IMG/VR virus record: IMGVR_UViG_2061766007_000288
Strand: one strand, 5' to 3'
Length of the DNA stretch: 64,000 bases
DNA from: an uncultured virus (IMG/VR IMGVR_UViG_2061766007_000288)
Taxonomy: Duplodnaviria > Heunggongvirae > Uroviricota > Caudoviricetes
Below, piece by piece: positions 19,378 to 62,043 of the stretch. Positions within the stretch are counted from its first letter, which is position 1, and each line of letters starts with the position of its first letter. A program made the position numbers and the translations under genes. Below the pieces are notes generated by a model that had not been told where the DNA came from, ran no database searches, and saw nothing but the letters and a program-made list of their open reading frames with translations.

Positions 19378-19940
19378 GGGGATGACAACAGATAGCATCA
19401 TTTCTACCAACAATTACCAACTTTAACCAGTTTCTATATACATTTTCTTGCAATAATACCTTGATTTTTAATGAAAATAATTGTAGATTGTTATAAACTT
19501 AATGATAGATGCAAGTAGGTGGAAGTTCTTGCATAAGACATTATAACGGACTTTTGAATGCCCGATGGACGCTAACTTCCACAATAAGTGTTCATCGGGC
19601 ATTTGCTATATAGACTATGGAACAGCAGTGCGGAAGGAAGATATGCTTGAAGCCGAGCAAGGCACAGGTGCGGACGATGTACCGTATGTGTGCCGTTTCC
19701 CGCCGNNNNNNNNNNTAACTGGAAACTTGCCGAACAGAACAAGGCTTACGAAGAAGCCAAGGCCAATACACCGGAAGGCGAGAAGGTCAAATGCACCCTC
19801 GGTACACCGAGAGATTGGCACAAGGAATGGTGCATCTTCAAGAAACTGTCCGATAACAAGTGGATGACGGAAGTCTCCAAGTTCTGCGGTCAAGAAGCCC
19901 TAATCGACCTCGGTTCCGCATGGAAGCGTTTCTTCAAGGG
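19378..19940 (+). mobile_element. tnpB: IS607-like non-autonomous TnpB element, left part (gapped)
   Basis: GGGG|ATGACAACAG left end and 10-nt periodic repeats. ORF from 19617: MEQQCGRKICLKPSKAQVRTMYRMCAVSR...NWKLA...KWMTEVSK...QEALIDLGSAWKRFFK (TnpB N-terminus). Confidence 0.75.
19509..19603 (+). ncRNA. kissing-loop leader RNA, copy A
   Basis: Stem ATGCAAG/CTTGCAT with loop TAGGTGGAAGTT; stem AATGCCCGATG/CATCGGGCATT with loop containing AACTTCCAC. Confidence 0.8.
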
Positions 19941-20318
19941 NNNNNNNNNNATCGATAGTTTTTTCCTTTGTGACTGTCTTAGAATTTGCTGTCTTTTTGG
20001 TAGTTGCCATTAAAAACTCCCTCAAATAGAGTAGGTCTGTAAATTAATCACGGATTCCGATGAAATCTCTCCGTTCCATCTGAACTTAAAAACGATAGTT
20101 CCTTGAAGGAGATAGTAAACCAACGCATCAACCTTCTCCGGGAATGTTTTCGGCAGTGTAGCATTAATCGGTTGGTCGTCAATGTAGACAGTGCACGATG
20201 TAGACAAGAGTCGTTCAGCCTCGTCGCGGAACATCTTGATGATATCATCATCGTCCCATTTTGTGCCATGGGCAAGAATGTAGTTGTCACGAATTAAAAA
20301 TACCATGTATTTTTCCTT

Positions 20319-44847: not shown

Positions 44848-46655
44848 CCTAAAATCTACCTAAACTTATCCAAAACTACTTAAATCTACAAGCATTTTAC
44901 CAACCTTTAGGTTGAAATTCGGCATAAAATTTGTACATTGTTATAAACTTGATGTATAGATGTTCGATGAATTAGTGGATTTCTTCATTGAACTATGACA
45001 AGAGACCATTTCCGATGGCTCGTTTGATGCTGAAATCCACTATAAGTATCGAACGAGCCATTTCTGTATTGTATGAGCAAGCACTGTTGGACATTGAAGG
45101 ATAGGTATGAATCGCAGTTCTCCGCTGCGTTTTATCCTATGCTTTTGTCCGACACGAAGCGAGCAGAAATCATCCACCGTGCTGAGGAAATCCGAGCCGT
45201 AAGGAACGACATATCCGAAGTGTTCTTCTCGGACATGCTAGGTTTCCAAGACATGACGAAGTTTGAAGCGTTCAACTTCTTCAATCCGACCTTCACCACT
45301 CGGCTATCCAGCCACTACTTGAAGAAGGCCATCGAGGATGTCTGGAAGGCATACCAATTACGGTTCGACGCAATTCGCAAGAAGATTGAGTTTGCCAAGG
45401 TTGACGAATTAGTACCATCCTTTTACAAGATAAATGTCAAGGGACATAAGAAAGGCGACCTTAAATCCGTTGAAGTTCGCACAAAGAAGACAGAACTTAC
45501 CAAAGTGCTGACTTGGCTTGCACGATACGGCAAGGATGAAACTGTCTACTGGCTGGCATCTGCTATTCCTACCGCGCAAGAATCCAAGCAGAAGTTCTAC
45601 CGAACGATACTGGATAAGATACGCAAGTTCGGATTTGATCGCCTAATGCGGCTGGCTATGTCTAAGAGAACCACTGTATTCACCGAATACGAGAAGCGGG
45701 GGAAGATTACCTTTGAATCGCTTACATTCAGTGGTCGGAGCCGTATCAAGCGTCCTATTGTTGATGCTAGAAGAAATGAAACCGGAAAGTTCGACTATTT
45801 CATCGAGATTTCCTGGGATTGGTATGACCAAGGATATCGTGGCGACAGCAAGAAGACGCTATGTATGCCGTTCAAGTACAATAAGGCATACCACCGTTCA
45901 TTGAACCGCTACTGCAACGGGACTGACACTTCCTATACTATGGTTGTTAGAGGCAAGGACATACATATAGTTATCGCCCGTGACGGCTACCGATACAAGA
46001 ATAATGATGAAATTACCGAAGAAAATACCGTCGGTATAGATGTCAATTCCAAGCACAATATGTTTGCATTGAGTACCGGGGAGTTCATCCCGAACGACGA
46101 TGCCTTAATTGACGACCTTGAAACCGAATTGCTCAAGATAGACCAGAAACAGAAGAACTACAATGCTCGGTTTGCCAAGGACGAAGAGCACGATGCGTTC
46201 AAGATTTCCAAGACGGACAAGAAACGGATTGAAGCAATAACCTTGAAATTGAACGAGTCCAACAAGCGAGCCATTGTACTGCTCTGTCAGACATTCGCTG
46301 CCAATGGAATCAAGCACATAGCAATGGAGAACCTTGATGGTTTCCAAGGAAGCAAACTTCATTCCGAGGACAGTAAAGGATTTAATCTAGGTAGGTTGCA
46401 TCTGCGGACTGGGCTTTCCTCCCTGAAGGATGAGTTCATCCATATTGCACCCAAGTACGGCTTGCTAGTATCGCTTGTGCAAGCCGAATACACATCTAAG
46501 ATGTGTGGTCACTGCGGCTGTATAGATGACCGCAACCGTCAGACACAAGAAGAATTTTGCTGTGTGGAATGCGGACATTCCGAGAATGCCGATATACACA
46601 GCTCGAAGAACATTAAATTTCGCCTTACCTCGACCGTGTTAAGAGGGAACCTGCT
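44832..46655 (+). mobile_element. tnpB: IS607-like element with long TnpB (CDS from 45073, truncated at gap)
   Basis: GGG|TTATCAACAG left end; four 10-nt repeats (AAAATCTACC/TAAACTTATC/CAAAACTACT/TAAATCTACA); GIDVN, AMENL, Zn finger, NADIH. Confidence 0.82.
44962..45061 (+). ncRNA. kissing-loop leader RNA, copy B
   Basis: Loop TAGTGGATTTC (44973-44983) is complementary to loop GAAATCCACTA (45032-45042). Confidence 0.82.
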
Positions 46656-46703
46656 NNNNNNNNNNACAAAGAAGAAACCGATAAAAACAAACGGGCCCAT
46701 ACA

Positions 46704-48428
46704 TCAAAATCCTGTGGTTGCGGTGACCGGGAACGGCCTGACATATTCAATTTCCTGCAGCTCGATGAGTACGTGCTGCGGCTTGTCGTACTTGTTGAGT
46801 ATGACGATGTTTTGTTTCATTTCGTTTACAGTATATTCCTGCTCGCCGAAACGGAGCTCGTAGGCCGATGAACCCTCACCCCGCTCTATATCCCAGTCGG
46901 ATGCCCAGAAAATCCGGGTTTCGCCCTTCGCACGGACATTGACAAATACGTCAGTGCCGTTGTCCATACTGTTCCTGATTATCTGGACGGTATTAGGCTG
47001 CACATCAAACGAAAATCTTGGCATCGCTTACCCGTTGTAGAGAGAATTGATATCCACCGGCGCGTAGTCGATGATAATCTTGTTGCCCCGGAACACGGCA
47101 TTGACCAGGAAGTAGGTCTTGGTTTCCCTGGGCTTCTCCTTCATGGCCGCACTCATGACCTCGTCGCGGAACTTCTCGTACAGGACATGGGATGTTCCCG
47201 AAAATAGGGACGGCTCGCCGTTTTCCAGCTTGTCCAGGGTGCTTAGGAACCTGGTCTCCACGATGAAGGAGTTGTTGTTCAGGCATACCACTTCCGTATA
47301 AGGATTGTAGTGCTTGTAGTCCCAAAACGTTAAGAATGCCGGTACCCCAACTAGCAGGATGGCGATGACGATAAAAACGATTGCTTCGACTGTCATAAGA
47401 TTGTCTCCGTTGCCATAAAACTAGCCTTTTGTTGCCATCTTGTCAATACTTTACTACATTTTGGCCATGAAAGTTATCGAACCACCATTGGCAGGCATCT
47501 GCCAGGACATGATTGACTGCATCGGGAACAAGGATGCCGAACCGGAAATCGTGACATTCTTCTACCGGATGCAGCAGCTGTACTTGAAGGGATGGCGCGA
47601 ATGCGGTTTCTGCAAGGGAACCGGGAGAATCACGACCGTCTATCCAAACAAGTGGGGCGCCAAGGAAACCGTCGAGCACTCATGCCTTACATGCAAGGGC
47701 CTTGGTTTCTACGACTTCAACGCGATGGTCAGGGAAGCCGAAGAACGCCGTAAGAAATGGATGGAGGAAGAATAGATGGAAAAGAGCGAAACCAAGTTCA
47801 TCATCGTGAACTACAGGCGCGACCAGGCGGTGCAGAACTGGTCATTCGCCGACAAGAAGCACATCATCTACTGCAACAGCGCCGAATGGGCGATGAAGTT
47901 CGCCGACAAGGCGGGCGCCAAGCGCACCCTGGACTACCTGAGGAAGAACTTCCCCGGCCAGGACCTCAGCATCGTAGAGGCGACATTCTACTCCGACGTT
48001 ACGTTCAAGGAGGTAAAATGCTAGTATTCTTCGAAATTATAGGAATCATCGGTGGCGCCATCGCACTCACGGTTGGCATCATGCTTCTCGCGAAGTTCAT
48101 CTATGACAGTTTCATCAACTCGCGCCGTCACCGTATCAAGGTAATCGCCACATATCGCCGTGACTACCCCAAGATGCACCTGTACAGCGTGGATCCTACC
48201 GATGGCATGTTCGGGCCCCCGTTCCTGCATTCCGACCCGGACAAGGGGTACAAGTTCCGCGCATACAGCATCTACCATGCTGCCGAACGTTACTTCAAGA
48301 GCTACCGCCGGCGCAACAAGGAAATGTCCGACCACGAGGACAGCGCCAGTCACGAGTGCAAGCCCATGTGGGCACACCTGCGCGTGAAGGACATGACAAC
48401 CGGCTTTACATATTACCTCGGAAGATAG
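46704..48428. other. small hypothetical genes (46704-47024 -, 47028-47396 -, 47467-47775 +, 47776-48024 +, 48018-48428 +)
   Basis: Divergent promoters near 47415-47460; the 47467 ORF has CxxCxGxG Zn motifs. Confidence 0.6.
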
Positions 48429-48476: not shown

Positions 48477-50466
48477 GGTTGCCAACAGTGAGCATAAAAT
48501 CGATCTAAATTTCCCAAAATCTACCGAAATCTACACACATTTTTCTACAACAATATCTTGACAACCGGTAAACATTTTTATATATTGTTATAAACTTATG
48601 GTATACTGTTCAATGAATTAGTGAGATTCTTCATTGAACTGGCAAGGTCATTTTAGATGGCTCGTTTGGAATTGAATCTCACAATAAGTTCCTTACGAGC
48701 CATTATTTTTGTATGAGCAAGCACTGTTGGACATTAGGCAATAGGTTCGAGTCGCAGTTTTCCGCTGCGTTCTATCCTATCATGTTGTCCGACACGAAGC
48801 GGACTGAAATCATACATAGAGCTGAAGAAATACGTGCCGTTCGGAACGAGATATCGGAGGTATTTTTCTCCAACATGCTCGGCTTCCAGGACATGACGAA
48901 GTTCGAGGCGTTCAACTTCTTCAATCCCACCTTCACGGACAGGATGTCCAGCCACTACTTGAAGAAGGCCATCGAGGATGTATGGAAAGCCTACCAGCTT
49001 AGATATGATGCCATCCGCAAGAAGATTGAATTTGAACTTGTCGGGAAACTTATACCATCGTTCTACAAGATAAATGCCAAGGGGCACAAGAAAGGCGACC
49101 TGAAGTCGATAGAACGGCATGCAAAGAAGACGGAACTGACCAAGGTGCTTACCTGGCTTGCCAGGTATGGAAATGACAACAGCGTATATTGGCTTGAATC
49201 GAAGATCCCTACCGTAGATGAATCCAAGCAGAAGTTCTACCGTACCATCCTCCGTTGTATTAGTAAGTTCGGGTTCGATCGCCTAATGCGGCTAGCTTTA
49301 TCCCGTAGAGAAACAGTATTTGGCGAGTATTCTTCCCGTGGCAAGATTACATTCGAGTCGCTCGCTTTCAGCGGCAGAAGCCGAATTAAAAGACCTATCG
49401 TAGATGCCAGAAGGAATGAAACTGGCAAGTTCGACTACTATATCGAGATTTCTTGGGACTGGTTCGATGATGGCTATCGTGGCGATAGCAAGAATACGAT
49501 GTGCATTCCGTTCAAGTACAACCGCGCATATCACCGTGCATTGCAAAGGTACTGCAACGGAACAGACACCTCATATACTATAGTTATCCGTGGCAACGAC
49601 ATCCACTTCGTATTGGCCAGGGACGGATACCGTTACAAGCACGATGAGGAAATTACCGAGGAAAATACTGTCGGAATAGACGTGAACTCCAAGCACAACA
49701 TGTTCGCATTGAGTACCGGTGAGTTCATTCCTCACGATGAAGCGTTGATTGCCGACCTCGAAGATGCACTGGTGAAAGTCGATGCCAAGCAGAAGGCGTA
49801 TAATGCTAGGTTCAAGAAGGACGAAGTTCATGATGCCTTCAAGATTTCGAAGAAGGACAAGAACCGCATCGAGGCAATCACTACGAAGCTGAACGAGTCC
49901 AACAAGCGTACCATTGCCAACTTATGCAAGCAGCTTGCAGAACTCGGCATCAGGCATATCGCCATGGAGAACCTCGATGGTTTCCGGGGACGCAAGCTTC
50001 ATTCGGAAGACAGTAAAGGATTTAATCTTGGACGGTTGCATCTAAGGATTGGACTTTCCTCACTGAAGGATGAGTTCATCCACATTGCACCCATGTACGG
50101 CTTGCTGGTTTCGCTTGTACAGGCCGAGTATACATCCAAGATGTGCGGTGAATGCGGTTGTATCGACGACCGTAACCGCCAGACCCAGGAAGAATTTTGC
50201 TGTGTGGAATGCGGGCATTCAGAGAATGCCGACATCCATTCAGCCAAGAACATTAAATTTCGCCTTACCTCGACCGTGTTAAGAGGGAACCTGCTAGTTC
50301 TAGCGGGGGATAGCGAATACAGGCACTTCATTCCGAAAGGAAACTTGCCTAGGTGGCGAGTAAAGAAGTTCCTGGAAAAATGCCGTTGCGATGGCCTGTT
50401 CAAACGGGCCATAGGAAATCACGAAAGACTTACCGTGAGTAAGTTTGAGTAGATTTCGGTCAACGG
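48477..50466 (+). mobile_element. tnpB: complete IS607-like non-autonomous element encoding 579-aa TnpB (48713-50452)
   Basis: Left end GGGG|TTGCCAACAG with 10-nt repeats; right end carries inverted copies (GTAAGTTTGAGTAGATTTCGG) and ends TCAACGG; RuvC D/E/D intact; no tnpA. Confidence 0.85.
48608..48703 (+). ncRNA. kissing-loop leader RNA, copy C
   Basis: Loop GTGAGATTC (48621-48629) is complementary to GAATCTCAC (48674-48682); compensatory relative to copy B. Confidence 0.82.
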
Positions 50467-56583: not shown

Positions 56584-57282
56584 ATTTTATTCCTTCGTAT
56601 CTTCGAGAAGCTGCGGGAGGTCTTCCTGCATCTTCTTTGTNNNNNNNNNNCGACATATTTCAACGCCTTCTCGATTTCGTTAATGCTCGGTTCCATTCCG
56701 TACCCCCTCATCGTATAACGAGTAAAAGTTGGTTCNNNNNNNNNNTTCCTGCCCATCGAAAGCAGTACATTTCACATCATCGAATTCGCAGTCGGCCATA
56801 TTAGTCCTTCGTATCTTCGAGAAGCTGCGGGAGGTCTTCCTGCATCTTCTTTGTAAGTTTCTGGTAAGCTCGGGTCATCGAATCCTCGGAGAAACCGCGC
56901 CAGGATGTGCGGGCGGGATACACGCTCTCGTTTCCGTCATCATCTATCTCGATGACAATTACCCATCCGAAAATGTGTAAAAATGTATTTACAAAAAGAA
57001 GAAGACCGCTCTCGCGGAACTCCTTCCAGGTCTTCTTTTTCGGTGTTTTAATCAATGCCATATACAGATTTCCATTCTAATATATTGTAAATATAGCAAT
57101 ATTTTACCCCCTTTGCAACATGCGTTGTAAAATTATCACATCCAGAGGTATTTTAATCACCCAGATTACACCCTACGTGGGAGGCTCCCATGGCTCCTGT
57201 TCTGCGAGAATCATCCGGCGCCAGATGGCCCGGAGGAAGTGGGCGACTACTGCGCCGTAGATTACGTGGCGGAGGCGGGAAA

Positions 57283-58236
57283 TCATGCAGCCTCCTTCTG
57301 AATTGCAATCGGATCAATCACACCATATTCAGTCGGGTTTTCGATGGAATGTTCCAGACCCATATTTTCGCGCACATGGGATAGAATTACATCATCGTCG
57401 ATACGAGTGGCATATACGGAATACCCCATTCTACGCAATAAAAACGGAAGGTTGCAAATGATATCATGCATCTGGTTATCAACTTTATCAAAATCCTTTA
57501 CAAACGTGCTTAAAAGTGTCGGATTATAACAACCCGGTAAATAGTTATTGCATAGTGAGACATAGTTGGGGAGAGTTCCCAATCGCCAACTAATTCCGGG
57601 ACGACCTTTGAACAGATTTACTTGGAAATAATAATGCTCCGTCTCGACAACGAAATAGCACTGGGGATCATATTGTTCTGGGTCGGCAAACTTCCAATGT
57701 ATTCCCCGTTCACCATTGATACCCATCTTGGTAATGTAACCGTCATGTCTCCTGGACATGTATGGCCCACACTGCTCTCCGCCTTTCCATGTGGTGTAGG
57801 TGATGAGCTTATTGGTCTTCCTCACACCAACACCATCCTTGTGGCCCTTACATGCTTTCATCTTACCGTATTCGGAATTGATTTCATCCATCCGGGAAAT
57901 CACTTCCTCCTCGGTAACCTTGGAAAAGTCGGTAGTCTGGTATGTCAGGCAAAACGCGTTGCGCATCTGCACCATTATGCAGGGCTTGGCGCATTTTGCC
58001 AGGTAGAAGTGTGCAAGTACATGCCTGCCCTTCGAGAGAGACACAAGGTTCTCCCTGGCCATGTCAGGGGACCTGGAAGTGCGGCATTCCTTTATGCCCA
58101 GTACATCGGAGAAGTACGCCACCGGGACTATGTGGTGGACTTCCAGGTTGTCCCCGTAGTCGCACCCGGAAACTAGTTCCAGGTACTTTCGCCCATATTC
58201 GCACTGGCTGTCGATTGCTTCTTCGATGTAATTCAT
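57283..58236 (-). CDS. HNH endonuclease-domain protein
   Basis: EVHHIVP...ENLVSLSKGRHVLAHFYL. Confidence 0.7.
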   Translation of the reverse strand: MNYIEEAIDSQCEYGRKYLELVSGCDYGDNLEVHHIVPVAYFSDVLGIKECRTSRSPDMARENLVSLSKGRHVLAHFYLAKCAKPCIMVQMRNAFCLTYQTTDFSKVTEEEVISRMDEINSEYGKMKACKGHKDGVGVRKTNKLITYTTWKGGEQCGPYMSRRHDGYITKMGINGERGIHWKFADPEQYDPQCYFVVETEHYYFQVNLFKGRPGISWRLGTLPNYVSLCNNYLPGCYNPTLLSTFVKDFDKVDNQMHDIICNLPFLLRRMGYSVYATRIDDDVILSHVRENMGLEHSIENPTEYGVIDPIAIQKEAA

Positions 58237-58299
58237 TCTTCACCCATTTGTTTTCCAAAATGTAGCAAATGTCACACCGAGTGGCAACCACCCGGAAAA

Positions 58300-59463
58300 T
58301 CATGAGCGATGAACCCTCCGTACATTGGCAAAAATATTCGGAAAATGTTCTATAACTCGATTTATCATATCTTTGCCCATGCCTGTACATGCAATCAGGG
58401 TTTTTTGCCATCCACATTTTGTTAAATCAACCCCCGAAGCTAATATCATGTCCCGTCGTCTGCAAAATTCAGATTCAAGAACCGCATGATTAGCACCATA
58501 TATTCCTAACGTTTCACGCTTGTTTACTGTTCCGGGTGAAGGGCGAATGAATACCTTACCGGCCAACTCAGGAAACCGTTTCACCGTAAGATTTACCTGC
58601 TTCCTGGTAAGACCGGTTTTCTTCGATACTTCACGCGCCCATCCAAACTTGTGTAAATCTATCCCAGAAGACAGAATCCGCTCTTTACGCTCGTTCCATA
58701 CGTGGTCAAAATACTCGCGATATATTTCTTTCAATCGCGCATTAACTTTCTTTTCCTCCATTTGACGTTCAGCTGCCGTTTTATATAATGGAAATGACAC
58801 ATCACCGCACTCAGTTAAAAACGCCTTTATTCGATTAACCGTATCCTCCTTATATTTTATGGCATATCCCCATTTCACCCGGAGCAATTTCCATCCATTC
58901 TGCTGAAGCAATGCCTCCTTCTTAGCATCGCTAGCCTTTCGTTCAGGCATTAAGTGGCAGTTCCCATCCATTTCAATGCAGAGCCGGCGGGTTACCCATG
59001 CGAAATCAAGAAAATACCCATAAAACGGGAGTTCAGTTACATAATCAACGCCTTCGTGTTGATTAAAGTTGTTGCGGAGCACTTCAATCAGCCACCTTTC
59101 TGGATAAGAATGACCAACTTTGTCCCTTGTGGAAAATTTCTTTGCCAACCCTAACCGATGTCGTTCTTTTTGGTGTTCCGAATGAATTCGGCGGAATTCA
59201 GGTGTCCGGCAGCAATCCATATTGAATACACGTCTATCAGGATTACGGGGACATCTCAGCTCATGATTTGCCAACCCAGGTGATGTAGTGTATAGTTGTT
59301 TGCCGCAAAATTTACATATGTAGTTATTTTTAACCACTATGCATGTATGAGATCTGCATCCCCTATGTGCTGTCTTTTTATGGTTTTCCAGTTCGCGCCT
59401 TACTGAAAAGATTTCTTTACATACTGGACATTTCCACCCATCTTTTTTGTGCTTAAATGTCAT
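58300..59463 (-). CDS. Zn-finger plus DUF559/Vsr-like endonuclease (probable free-standing homing endonuclease)
   Basis: CPVC..H...H and CKFC..H...C; YFLDFAW...IEMDGNCH...DAKKEALLQQNGWKLLRVKW; two C-terminal ILxSGxDLxKxGW repeats. Confidence 0.8.
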   Translation of the reverse strand: MTFKHKKDGWKCPVCKEIFSVRRELENHKKTAHRGCRSHTCIVVKNNYICKFCGKQLYTTSPGLANHELRCPRNPDRRVFNMDCCRTPEFRRIHSEHQKERHRLGLAKKFSTRDKVGHSYPERWLIEVLRNNFNQHEGVDYVTELPFYGYFLDFAWVTRRLCIEMDGNCHLMPERKASDAKKEALLQQNGWKLLRVKWGYAIKYKEDTVNRIKAFLTECGDVSFPLYKTAAERQMEEKKVNARLKEIYREYFDHVWNERKERILSSGIDLHKFGWAREVSKKTGLTRKQVNLTVKRFPELAGKVFIRPSPGTVNKRETLGIYGANHAVLESEFCRRRDMILASGVDLTKCGWQKTLIACTGMGKDMINRVIEHFPNIFANVRRVHRS

Positions 59464-59480
59464 ACCATACCCAATTAAGA

Positions 59481-59568
59481 TACCCCCGGTATAGCAATTT
59501 GTGGCACTCTGCATATACCAGGGGTACAAAAATGGTTTATGTTCGAACATGAGTGCCACCTAATGCTC
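59481..59568 (-). ncRNA. kissing-loop leader RNA, copy E
   Basis: GAGCAT-TAGGTGGCACTC-ATGTTC; TACCCCTGGTATA...GAGTGCCAC...TATACCGGGGGTA. Confidence 0.8.
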
Positions 59569-59619
59569 AGATAAAGTTTATAGGTTTCACCACAATTCGA
59601 AATTGGTATGATATATTCG

Positions 59620-59694
59620 AGCAGATGACGAAAGTCGAATTCGCAACCTCGGCAATGGGAATGCCGCGCTCTGAGCCAGTTGAGCTACATCTGC
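59620..59694 (-). tRNA. tRNA-Gly(CCC)
   Basis: GCAGATG/CATCTGC acceptor stem, D arm, CGGCA-TTCCCAT-TGCCG anticodon arm, TTCGA T-loop; CCA is not encoded (TCGA). Confidence 0.9.
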
Positions 59695-59695
59695 A

Positions 59696-59947
59696 TGGTG
59701 GGCCTCCGCGGTAAATCACGCCACGGTAACGGGTGGTCCAACCGGTTCCACCGTCTCCCCGGTGGAAGGGCGCCTACATGTTTTCCCTCACGTACTCGTG
59801 ATGCAGGAAGGGGAGAGGAGTTCCCTGTCCCATGAGTGCTGCATGGGCACAGCACCATTTACTGATGATTCAGGACCGCTCATCGAGAACCCGGCCATGA
59901 ACCCAGTCCCCACTCCACTGATTCTTGTGGCAGAACGGACGACTGCT
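59696..59947 (-). ncRNA. unidentified structured RNA ending in ACCA, 1 nt upstream of tRNA-Gly
   Basis: Promoter -10 at 59954-59959; several perfect hairpins; no plausible CDS. Confidence 0.55.
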
Positions 59948-59999
59948 GTCCCGAATATAGCAAATTTTCAGCCATATCGGAAGACGTTTCCGAATTTTT

Positions 60000-60806
60000 T
60001 CACTTAATGTCCACGATTGGCATGACCTTGTCGTTCGCGACGACATTCGGGAGCTTGCCATCCCAACTTTCAATCCATTTAAGATTGATATAGGCCTTTG
60101 CATTCGGGTTGGCGAGGGCTTTCATGCCGATTGCGATGGCGAGAGAATCGGCCTTTGCATTCATGACCCTGATTGTGGAGTCTGCCTGAGCAGCAATAAC
60201 CTTCTGGTCGCGCTGATATTCAACCTTCTTCTTGACATTTTCTTCGCGCTTGGCGTCCTGTTCAGCAATCTGCTTGTCCAAGATTGCCCGGTTGAACTGG
60301 GCATCGAACTTGAATTCATAAATGGTAAAACCGTCAATAACAATATGGGATTTTGCCGAATCCAGTTTAGCTCGAAGGGCGTTTTCCATGCGTAGACGGA
60401 TTTCTTCACGCTTCTGCAACATTTCTTCCGGTGCATATTGTGGTGTAACGCCGGTAATGGTTTCGCGCATTTTCGGTTGCAAAATGGTCACGACCACATC
60501 CTTGCCGTACTGGCCATACACGTCAGCCACTTTCGTTGGATCGATATGGTAGTTCACATTGACACCCACGGTCACTTCCTGCATGTCCTTGGAACCGGCA
60601 CCAACACGCATGGTTTCAAGCTGTGTCTTGACCGGAATCCTGACCACCTTTTCGGTAATCACGTTGTAGAAGTTAAGCCCCGGATCAATCGTCTCGCTCA
60701 CCTTTCCAAAGTTAAGCACGACACCGCGTTCAGTCTGGTCAATTTCTGCACATCCCGTGAACACGAAGAAGATGAGGAGTGCAAATGCTGTGATGAGTTT
60801 TTTCAT
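60000..60806 (-). CDS. SPFH/prohibitin (band 7) membrane protein
   Basis: ERGVVLNFGKV...PGLNF...SKDMQEV...IESWDGKLP; N-terminal hydrophobic segment. Confidence 0.88.
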   Translation of the reverse strand: MKKLITAFALLIFFVFTGCAEIDQTERGVVLNFGKVSETIDPGLNFYNVITEKVVRIPVKTQLETMRVGAGSKDMQEVTVGVNVNYHIDPTKVADVYGQYGKDVVVTILQPKMRETITGVTPQYAPEEMLQKREEIRLRMENALRAKLDSAKSHIVIDGFTIYEFKFDAQFNRAILDKQIAEQDAKREENVKKKVEYQRDQKVIAAQADSTIRVMNAKADSLAIAIGMKALANPNAKAYINLKWIESWDGKLPNVVANDKVMPIVDIK

Positions 60807-61286
60807 CTGGTCTGTCCTTTTTGTTGATTGTTTTTCAAAATGTAGCATTCTCGCCGGTATTCGGCAACCTAGTCTCGGCTGCATGCCTTCAGTTGTTCAA
60901 GGTAAAACTGGTGGTCGTCGGACAATTCGCACTGGTCCAGATAAGACTGCTTAACACTTGTTTTCCCGACAAACATGGTGTACAGTTCGTACGCAAACCG
61001 AAAACGGCTCTTCTGGTTAGTGCCTACCCCGCCTTCGCGAAGTACGCCTTTACGGTCCTTCTTCACCGCGTCCTTCATGATCCATTTCAGTTCCCTGGCC
61101 AGTTTCTTCTTGTCGCTACCCATAAGGTATCTTGCCGCCTGCTCAAACTGACCGGAACACAGCAGCTTGCTGAAATCACCGGTAATCTGGCATTTCGGAT
61201 CGCGGGTGACTAGTAGTTCGAGCACTACACCCAGCCCGAACAGTACGATTGCGATAATGGTAATGTATTCGTTCATATGTTTTCCT

Positions 61287-61649
61287 TTAATGGTGGCTTA
61301 TGTCACCGGACATTGTGTTGATGTTACCCGACACGGAACCTTTAACGTCCACGTCGCCGGACATTGTTGTTACATTGTTTGCATTCCCACCCACATTGAT
61401 GTCGCCGCTCGATGTCGTAAGGTTACCGGAGTTGCCGGTGACCTTGATATAACCAGAACTGGTACTGGCGGACCCGACCGTTCCATCGATGGAAATGTTG
61501 ATGACCTTATCCTTGATGACCAGTTCGTTGTCACCGATGATGATTTTGTCACCGTCAATTGTGATGCTTGAACCAGGAGGGGCCTGAATTGTCCTGCCGT
61601 TTACCTGGATGCTGCTCCCGTTTACATTGCTGCAGACTATTGTTGCCAT
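61287..61649 (-). CDS. beta-strand repeat protein (DUF4097-like)
   Basis: Repeated T(T/M)SGD(I/V)xVxG. Confidence 0.65.
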   Translation of the reverse strand: MATIVCSNVNGSSIQVNGRTIQAPPGSSITIDGDKIIIGDNELVIKDKVINISIDGTVGSASTSSGYIKVTGNSGNLTTSSGDINVGGNANNVTTMSGDVDVKGSVSGNINTMSGDISHH

Positions 61650-62043
61650 GTCTATTCCTTTGTCGGCGTTCCAGCCGGCATGTGTACGATAGGTTCTTCA
61701 AAAGCGGCGATTACCACCTTGTCGAGCAGTGCGGCGAATGGAATTCCGGCCCACCTGGCGTGGTTGCGTGGGTCATTGTGAGGCTCAACTCCACCGACGA
61801 CCATGGTAGTCAAAAGTTCAATGTGCCAAATCCGCTCATTCGGCCACCTGATGTTATGTTCAACAGTAATGAGGATAGGGTCATTCAGTGAATTCTTGTC
61901 CTTCGGGTAGACCTTGATCTGGGAGGGGCAGTAGGAAACTTCCACCCCGTATTTCTCGTTGCCGAGGTCGATTGCCTGTTTGATTTCGTCCGAGGTGAAC
62001 TTGTCCTGCACGAAATCCTTGGAAAATCCCATCAAACTGTTCA

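Follow-up and report, generated by a model that had tools for sequence, protein, structure and literature searches.

The tRNA-Gly locus and its nuclease cassettes

We analysed a window of 64,000 nt from an uncultured Caudoviricetes phage (IMG/VR record IMGVR_UViG_2061766007_000288), in which a predicted homing-type endonuclease gene lies behind a tRNA gene and is preceded by a structured leader. The locus is encoded on the minus strand and begins with tRNA-Gly(CCC) (59619–59694), identified by ARAGORN and by the Rfam tRNA model (58.9 bits). After a spacer of 36 nt (59583–59618) follows the leader itself (59582–59464), named copy E, which consists of two hairpins with loop-loop pairing over 9 bp. 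It lies 5' of the gene at 58300–59463, which encodes a protein of 387 aa with zinc fingers (ZnF) and a DUF559 domain, predicted to be a free-standing homing-type endonuclease. Further downstream lie an HNH cassette (57283–58290), made up of a promoter (58240–58290) and an HNH-type homing endonuclease gene (57283–58236; phrog_655, annotated as homing endonuclease, E 1e-5), and a small conserved gene (56801–57061; phrog_16397). On its right, the insertion site is flanked by this small gene; on its left, the inserted cassette is bounded by the 3' end of the tRNA gene.

Comparison with related phages showed that the leader and its gene were inserted as one cassette, precisely at the 3' end of the phage tRNA-Gly gene. 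The related phage L142, whose neighbouring SPFH protein is 72% identical, represents the empty site: its SPFH gene is followed by a conserved GC-rich region, tRNA-Gly(CCC), 18 nt and a homologue of gene 56801–57061, with no leader, DUF559 gene or HNH gene. In L124, tRNA-Gly is followed by the leader, a shorter endonuclease gene of 84% identity, a promoter of the window's type and the homologue of the small gene, without the HNH gene. The window thus carries the L124-like arrangement plus an HNH gene with its own promoter. A contig from metagenome X5 spans 56762–59725 in the window's arrangement, HNH gene included, while contigs from metagenome X8 hold both an empty-site junction and an occupied allele. 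The comparison of related genomes suggested with the original prediction therefore finds the site empty in L142 and in an X8 contig and occupied in the window, L124 and X5. The tRNA sequence differs between occupied and empty alleles, mainly in the acceptor and D arms. The HNH cassette being missing from L124 and L142, the window has two distinct nuclease cassettes one behind the other at a single tRNA site.

Structure of the leader

The 5' edge of the leader is a conserved box, TATAAACTT (59582–59574). Hairpin 1 (59545–59568) has a 6-bp stem, GAGCAT/ATGTTC (59568–59563 with 59550–59545), with one G.U pair, and a loop of 12 nt, TAGGTGGCACTC (59562–59551), of which nine bases (59559–59551) form the 5' kissing segment GTGGCACTC. 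An A- and T-rich linker of 18 nt leads to hairpin 2 (59481–59526), whose stem TACCCCTGGTATA/TATACCGGGGGTA (59526–59514 with 59493–59481) comprises 13 bp, extended by three pairs, GCA/TGC. The apical loop of hairpin 2 contains the 3' kissing segment GAGTGCCAC (59509–59501), which is the exact complement of GTGGCACTC in loop 1 over all nine bases. Hairpin 2 also contains an in-frame ATG at 59514 and the promoter-like word TTGCTATA (59490–59497), and an A/U-rich tail of 17 nt (59464–59480) separates it from the start codon of the endonuclease gene.

The fold z-score of this leader is −4.96. Its minimum-energy fold predicts a further helix between CATACCAATT (59610–59601) and AATTGGGTATG (59476–59466), directly 5' of the start codon. 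This closing helix is without comparative support because the relatives are identical there, and RNAalifold recovered no conserved helix closing the whole leader across the family. Hairpin 2 was not called an intrinsic terminator by a simple scan, whose rule does not admit a loop of this size.

A family of kissing-loop leaders

Two de novo scans of the window, based on structure only, pointed to five places, A to E; further matches were few, much weaker and at chance level. Besides copy E, these are copy A (19519–19603), copy B (44973–45059) and copy C (48621–48703) on the plus strand, and copy D (43935–43850) on the minus strand, which has the same design. A covariance model of 16 leaders (R1), restricted to the hairpins and leaving out the loop-loop helix, did not detect copy D (14.3 bits, E 2), which we treated as analogous only. 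The conserved box has four matches in the window, all of them at copies A, B, C and E, whereas 0.31 matches were expected.

R1 matched 19 leaders in nine of the 14 IMG/VR records searched, and three more in contigs of rumen metagenome-assembled genomes (MAGs). In copy E, hairpin 1 counts 6–7 bp and hairpin 2 counts 13–14 bp plus three. The loops of the family measure 12 nt and about 13 nt; the loop sizes and the box are constant across subtypes, while the stems vary freely. The tail measures 10–14 nt in the other leaders (counted by a parser from the end of hairpin 2 to the ATG, ATG included). Columns 1–7 of the box are invariant in an alignment of 19 leaders, and a manual count found the full 9-mer in 23 of 28 leaders, with four more differing in one or two of the last letters and L162 without it at this position.

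In an alignment of 28 leaders, 97.9% of the cells pair, compared with 65.9% in shuffles and 38–41% when the 3' partner was shifted by one, two or three columns. Although the model that produced this alignment did not contain the kissing helix, this helix is paired in 100% of its cells, and eight of its nine pairs show two-sided changes. Two-sided changes are also present in every pair of the hairpin 1 helix (10/10) and the hairpin 2 helix (14/14). RNAalifold, unaided, recovered both hairpins, with 22 of 24 pairs covarying. Pairing is also conserved in relatives of copy E, the leaders of L124 and X5, in which the G.U pair of hairpin 1 is replaced by A-U and the pairs are kept. Among B/C-type leaders, variation falls chiefly on the four central bases of the kissing segment, and the opposite loop always changes to match.

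The sense strand folds more stably than the antisense strand in 23 of 23 leaders, with a mean gap of 11.6 kcal/mol, so the selected structure belongs to one strand, that transcribed with the gene. Since the parser applied to individual leaders over-extended hairpin 2, the strand argument rests on sense/antisense folding, and the pair counts on the alignment and RNAalifold.

The original prediction had placed copy E at this locus as a further copy of the motif, and we confirmed it, on the minus strand, as a true member of the two-hairpin kissing-loop leader family. With a second covariance model (R2), built from 19 leaders and excluding E, L124, L151, L152 and L162, the scores are 58.2 bits for E (E 1.9e-7), 55.0 bits for L151 and 54.8 bits for L124. 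The start TAGGTGG, which had been singled out as common to copies A and E, is indeed shared by them. However, it marks no special relationship: GTGG is the usual start of the kissing segment across the family, TAGGTGG by itself is not enriched in the window (seven matches against 5.0 expected), and E is 0.56 identical to A, no closer than to the other subtypes (0.45–0.60). Each gene family has its own leader subtype, and the associations between leader and gene are therefore old rather than recent transfers.

In Rfam 15, no family matched the leader: region 59300–60100 returned only the tRNA and one chance snoRNA row at E values up to 10, and the best row for the region of copy B reached 16 bits against a gathering score of 127. 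The whole-window Rfam scans are weak negatives, because both missed the tRNA-Gly that the sub-window scan had found. A 22-mer specific to E had no exact match in IMG/VR, and a scan of IMG/VR with a 14-mer of the box gave 115 loci, mostly chance, with a leader only in L011, L024 and L050. A scan of GTDB genomes with a TnpB protein matched only rumen MAG contigs; these resemble phage DNA, so the scan speaks neither for nor against carriage by bacterial chromosomes. Given 28 examples, strong covariation that includes a pseudoknot-like loop-loop helix and no Rfam match, the module is a candidate new RNA family.

The kissing words of the copies residing together in the window all differ, and the 9-bp word is unique to each copy in every genome seen. 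A third copy of each word, as a possible target in trans, was sought in the window, and only chance matches with one mismatch were found. The linker between the hairpins in L161 carries three tandem copies of TTAGAAT (7 nt), of which the related leader in L011 has one, and thus linker length is free to vary.

The endonuclease behind copy E

The product of gene 58300–59463 matched Pfam DUF559 with 41.7 bits (cut-off 20.6) over residues 119–216. Two fingers lie at residues of about 10–33 and 50–75, where zf-C2H2 scores 24.2 bits, slightly below its cut-off of 25.2. Five Pfam matches were obtained in all, including DUF559, MTES_1575 and zf-C2H2, and the GIY-YIG family is not among them. Residues D153, E164, D166, D179 and K182 are invariant in 18 sequences. 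In an AlphaFold2 model (mean predicted local distance difference test score 77.7), the nuclease core superposes on the catalytic domain of I-Bth0305I (3r3p) with a TM-score of 0.78–0.81, scaled to target length, and a root-mean-square deviation of 3.0–3.4 Å over about 100 columns. The modelled core also matches the DUF559-like structure 3hrl and Vsr (1vsr and 1cw0), and the modelled N-terminus resembles zinc-finger proteins. Whole-chain Foldseek E-values are weak (2e-3 and above) because the protein is multi-domain. The C-terminus contains two similar helical repeats, against one in the L124 homologue. The protein as a whole comprises a pair of C2H2 zinc fingers, a DUF559 nuclease of Vsr-like fold, which is predicted to be catalytically active, and helical repeats.

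A sequence search of the PDB gave only a weak 3hrl row for this protein, megablast of 57000–62000 against phage GenBank records gave no match, and a search of IMG/VR with the protein alone returned no close relative. Relatives of the endonuclease have tRNA genes in 12 of 13 loci (eight from IMG/VR and five from JGI), and in seven of the eight IMG/VR loci a tRNA on the same strand ends 43–301 nt before the match. No leader was found in the 12 distant endonuclease loci in which it was sought. From its sequence and position, the gene behaves as a free-standing homing-endonuclease cassette, for which cleavage and self-driven inheritance are predicted.

Start codon of the endonuclease gene

The annotated open reading frame (ORF) begins at GTG 59559, and the original prediction had objected that this start lies inside the RNA and that 59463 is the probable one. 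Our data favour that view. The kissing segment begins with the first base of GTG 59559, a codon that directly follows an in-frame TAG; in L124 and in the X5 DNA contig, one extra T in the T-run of the linker breaks the frame from this codon to the gene, so this start is excluded in the relatives. The methionine at 59463 is aligned in five of the six closest homologues, and the sixth, P0004, starts three residues downstream. ATG 59514, in hairpin 2, is the called start of P0001, P0003 and P0006, which all begin with MQSATNCYTGGIL, the same 13 residues. P0006 is only 40% identical overall yet shares this N-terminal extension, which P0002, at 72% identity, does not have. We read the shared MQSATNCYTGGIL extension as conservation of leader nucleotides, not of a peptide. 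Translation most probably starts at ATG 59463.

Genes behind the leader in other phages

The gene families behind covariance-model matches were listed, as had been suggested for this motif. Among the 19 model matches in other phage records, 17 precede TnpB, one a DUF7487 protein and one a protein of 431 aa without a Pfam family. The TnpB cases consist of six of the long B/C type, nine confirmed by Pfam, one cut by the contig end and one behind a short ORF. The last, in L152, has about 50 codons with hydrophobic stretches and lies about 25–175 nt behind the leader, before the TnpB gene. The DUF7487 case, in L151, is a zinc-ribbon/DUF7487 protein of 370 aa (Pfam E 3.9e-14); it weakly matches (E 2.9e-5) a PHROG whose annotation is homing endonuclease, and a PDB sequence search with it found no significant relative. 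TnpB relatives of the B/C type (80–87% identical) were found at 12 IMG/VR loci, ten of which have the leader.

The claim that the motif is neither an end structure of IS607 nor specific to TnpB was borne out on both points. Two B/C-type tnpB genes directly behind an IS607-type TnpA (MerR helix-turn-helix plus resolvase) have no leader, and the leader heads the ZnF-DUF559 genes of the window and L124 as well as the DUF7487 gene of L151. Genes of the B/C type thus occur either behind TnpA without a leader (L137, 46–687; L138, 270–980) or solo behind a promoter and leader (window 44942–45075 and 48589–48715), so that the solo form has the leader where the other form has tnpA. The IS605/IS1341-type tnpB unit of L142 is bounded by two near-identical hairpins, one about 60 nt before the box and the other after the tnpB gene, so that the leader sits inside the unit and not at its ends. 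Together with the leaderless full IS607-type units, this makes the leader a module that precedes solo nuclease genes of several kinds; in related rumen phages these are solo tnpB of two IS types and a third nuclease family. The gene behind copy E contains no transposase family, and end hairpins like those of the L142 unit were not seen in its flanks, formed by the tRNA and a promoter; Pfam, ARAGORN and inspection of the flanks thus agree with the earlier description of a zinc-finger/DUF559 endonuclease beside tRNA-Gly, with no insertion-sequence ends. The leader is neither a transposon end nor a TnpB scaffold.

Other nuclease genes of the window were also recorded. The TnpB-like proteins encoded at 45073–46863 and 48713–50452 on the plus strand have 596 and 579 aa, about 200 residues more than usual, and Pfam recognizes only the C-terminal TNB domain in them. 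Copy A precedes only an N-terminal TnpB piece (19618–19950, plus strand), whose full-length relatives in L155 and L156 have 463 aa; masked N runs at 19706–19715 and 19941–19950 interrupt this gene, and the truncation may therefore be only apparent. A full-length match to HEARO (the IscB omega-RNA, RF02033; 131 bits) lies at 252–479 on the minus strand, and the corresponding IscB ORF would leave the window.

Promoters and transcription of the leader

The window contains a repeated promoter-like unit, GGTTGCC, about 13 nt and TTTGCTA(C/T)ATTTG, usually 4–5 nt before an ATG, which we take to be of the Bacteroidota −33/−7 type. It was found at 20 sites, examples being 853, 10395, 26118, 33508, 58268 and 62614 on the minus strand and 10438, 16192, 17754 and 27044 on the plus strand. 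GGTTGCC often centres a short palindrome, and, judged by eye, an ATG lies within 15 nt at roughly two thirds of the sites. This arrangement suggests that most genes are leaderless and that terminator and promoter form compact units, much as in PeSLs. Since the usual promoter implies near-leaderless mRNAs, the TnpB leaders, with roughly 110–130 structured nt, are exceptional in this genome.

Copies A to C and their relatives have a variant of the −33/−7 pair just upstream of the box. In the spacer of copy E, only a degenerate promoter remnant, ATTGT, is kept, together with a 9-nt insertion relative to those copies, and a sigma-70-type scan of 59350–60050 found no sites. The proposal that the motif is a portable cassette of promoter and RNA is therefore supported in part: it fits copies A to C, which carry the −33/−7 pair, but not copy E, which has no promoter. 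Because copy E lies 36 nt behind the tRNA and has no promoter, read-through from the tRNA operon is a likely source of its transcript, and the leader is probably transcribed in this way from the upstream operon of tRNA and non-coding RNA. Contigs from RNA libraries cover 59704–59971 and 58972–59207 at this locus; the leader lies outside both, and they are uninformative either way.

Upstream of the tRNA, a GC-rich region of about 265 nt (59695–59962, minus strand) lies between a promoter-like site (59956–59963) and tRNA-Gly and is conserved in L124 and L142. A fold of the three sequences contains six two-sided pair changes, while the fold z-score is only −0.83, and Rfam has no match for it. An RNA-library contig of 272 nt covers just 59704–59971. 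The region may be a stable non-coding RNA that is co-transcribed with the tRNA.

Possible functions of the leader

The data speak for a single strand that folds in the sense orientation and keeps a constant, short spacing to the start codons of nuclease genes; that the leader acts as RNA, and with what effect, we infer. We put the probability at roughly 55% that it is a cis-acting RNA in the 5' untranslated region that limits or times the expression of DNA-cutting selfish genes. The leader RNA of copy E would fold into two hairpins locked by the 9-bp loop-loop helix, ending 17 nt before ATG 59463, and would act in cis by restraining or timing translation, or by setting mRNA stability or read-through. 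Hindered initiation beside the start codon, altered mRNA stability and attenuation of read-through are possible routes, and we propose a parallel with the RNA hairpins that gate homing endonuclease genes of T4.

Several observations weigh against a cis-acting expression control. Hairpin 2 stops 9–17 nt before the start codon and leaves it uncovered, and the genes have no Shine-Dalgarno sequence to hide, so that simple occlusion is not evident; nor does occlusion account for the upkeep of a 9-bp kissing helix over two plain hairpins. The module is not uniform, the promoter of the TnpB copies being absent from copy E. The box of L162 is found directly before the ATG and not at the 5' edge, which a simple role at the 5' end leaves unexplained. 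Every E-type locus has the in-frame ATG 59514, which makes a longer protein possible, and the relatives of the E subtype are too alike to show covariation within the subtype. Finally, the sense-strand bias is also compatible with a structure in one DNA strand.

It is unlikely that the leader of copy E is an idle leftover, present because the endonuclease replaced tnpB or recombined behind the 5' region of a solo tnpB. Such an origin would agree with the predominance of tnpB behind leaders in other phage records (17 of 19), with the degraded piece of a TnpB-type promoter retained in E and with the leaderless distant relatives of the endonuclease in tRNA arrays (no matches in 12 loci). However, all three helices are intact in E, and its relatives change G.U to A-U with the pairs unbroken. 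P0006, at 40% identity, is called from inside hairpin 2 with the same 13 residues, so the 3' half of the leader was kept while the protein diverged. Moreover, the E leader is a subtype of its own and not a recent copy of a leader residing in the same genome, and a second unrelated nuclease gene, that of L151, also has a leader.

A quite doubtful alternative is that the module matters mainly as DNA, serving like a PeSL as a repeated patch of homology for the swapping of nuclease genes, with any effect on expression secondary. The same module stands before four kinds of gene, the 3' half of the leader is identical before proteins that are only 40% identical, the ordinary promoters of the window are also compact repeated palindromic units, and PeSLs are documented as mediating shuffling (PMC2839356). 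Subtypes of 45–60% identity, however, offer poor homology for recombination, and the strict maintenance of three helices by two-sided changes, taken with the sense-strand bias, indicates that selection acts on a folded single strand rather than on homology of the duplex.

We consider it improbable that the leader is the docking site of a shared phage or host factor acting in trans, protein or RNA, that switches the selfish nucleases together, as in the second option of the original prediction. Conservation of the box and of the fixed loop sizes (12 and 13 nt) across subtypes, with stems left free, would suit such a factor, as would the different kissing words of the copies residing together in the window. 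No candidate factor was found, however, and a third copy of any kissing word was not found elsewhere in the window; the idea also overlaps with cis-acting control instead of excluding it.

It is very improbable that the hairpins and their loop pairing belong to the left end of IS200/IS605-type elements and work in single-stranded DNA when these transpose: this family does use hairpins in one DNA strand, most copies lie in tnpB units and the sense-strand bias is compatible with a single active strand, but the real end hairpins of the IS605/IS1341-type unit lie elsewhere, the leader also heads IS607-type tnpB while full IS607 elements use a serine recombinase and are leaderless, E and L151 have no transposon gene, no end hairpins were seen flanking E, and the distance from leader to start codon is kept short.

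One might speculate, with considerable doubt, that the leader is a dedicated RNA 'governor' common to RNA-guided TnpB and to the protein-guided homing nucleases of rumen jumbo phages, with the kissing word, which can be recoded freely, as the address of each copy. Each element would then fold, or be recognized in trans, only with its own partner, allowing copy-specific control or discrimination of self from non-self. The sharing of the module suggests that, for these phages or for the elements themselves, RNA-guided nucleases and classical homing nucleases fall into a single regulatory class, in keeping with the idea that phage TnpB is a homing nuclease. Swappable kissing words would make a simple test system.

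Comparison with known systems

T4 SegB is reportedly a free-standing homing endonuclease in a tRNA region, and the original prediction had drawn this analogy. It holds for the lifestyle, as 12 of 13 loci of relatives have tRNA genes, and, as in T4 and other T-even phages, a nuclease gene lies between conserved genes in a phage tRNA region and varies in presence among relatives. It does not extend to descent: SegB is a GIY-YIG enzyme, whereas the protein described here has a Vsr-like DUF559 core and C2H2 zinc fingers. The near-constant position of the ZnF-DUF559 family in tRNA arrays thus extends the SegB theme to a different nuclease fold, which may matter given that SegB is said to have been linked recently to the amplification of tRNA and anti-defence loci. 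I-Bth0305I, which shares the modelled core fold, is intron-encoded, in contrast to the free-standing gene found here; sequence identity is about 20%, and the zinc-finger and C-terminal repeat modules differ.

In IS200, two stem-loops in the 5' region keep expression of the element's gene low; they act on tnpA and hide its ribosome-binding site. The leader resembles them in placing two stem-loops in the 5' region of an IS200/IS605-family gene, but we know of no kissing interaction in the IS200 hairpins, nor of their being common to non-transposon genes. HEARO is likewise a structured RNA upstream of an ORF and linked to a transposon nuclease gene. It is, however, the guide-RNA scaffold of one protein family, whereas the leader heads unrelated nucleases; this, with the lack of an Rfam match, makes it unlikely that the leader serves as a guide scaffold. 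The omega-RNA of TnpB lies at the 3' end of tnpB.

Homing endonuclease genes of T-even phages are often promoter-less cassettes in which stable RNA structures delay translation until the right time, and such structures gate I-TevI, I-TevII, I-TevIII, segB and mobE (PMC2988022). The cassette at tRNA-Gly shares with those described there the lack of its own promoter and reading from upstream, a stable RNA structure just 5' of the start codon and, in L124, a promoter within the cassette that serves the downstream gene. The T4 hairpins hide a Shine-Dalgarno sequence, whereas there is none here, and the two-hairpin kissing complex is common to tnpB genes. PeSLs of T4-type phages are short repeated units of promoter and stem-loop before variable dispensable genes, linked to modular shuffling (PMC2839356). 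Their stem-loops are described there as terminators in or next to the promoter, without loop-loop pairing and not tied to nucleases, whereas the structure at hand would be part of the transcribed leader, and a promoter is missing at copy E.

A limited literature search found no description of such a leader. Neither a structured leader on a homing endonuclease gene nor a homing endonuclease in a tRNA region is a new kind of arrangement; what is new is a kissing-loop module supported by covariation and common to TnpB of two IS types and two unrelated nuclease families, and a ZnF-DUF559 family resident in tRNA arrays.

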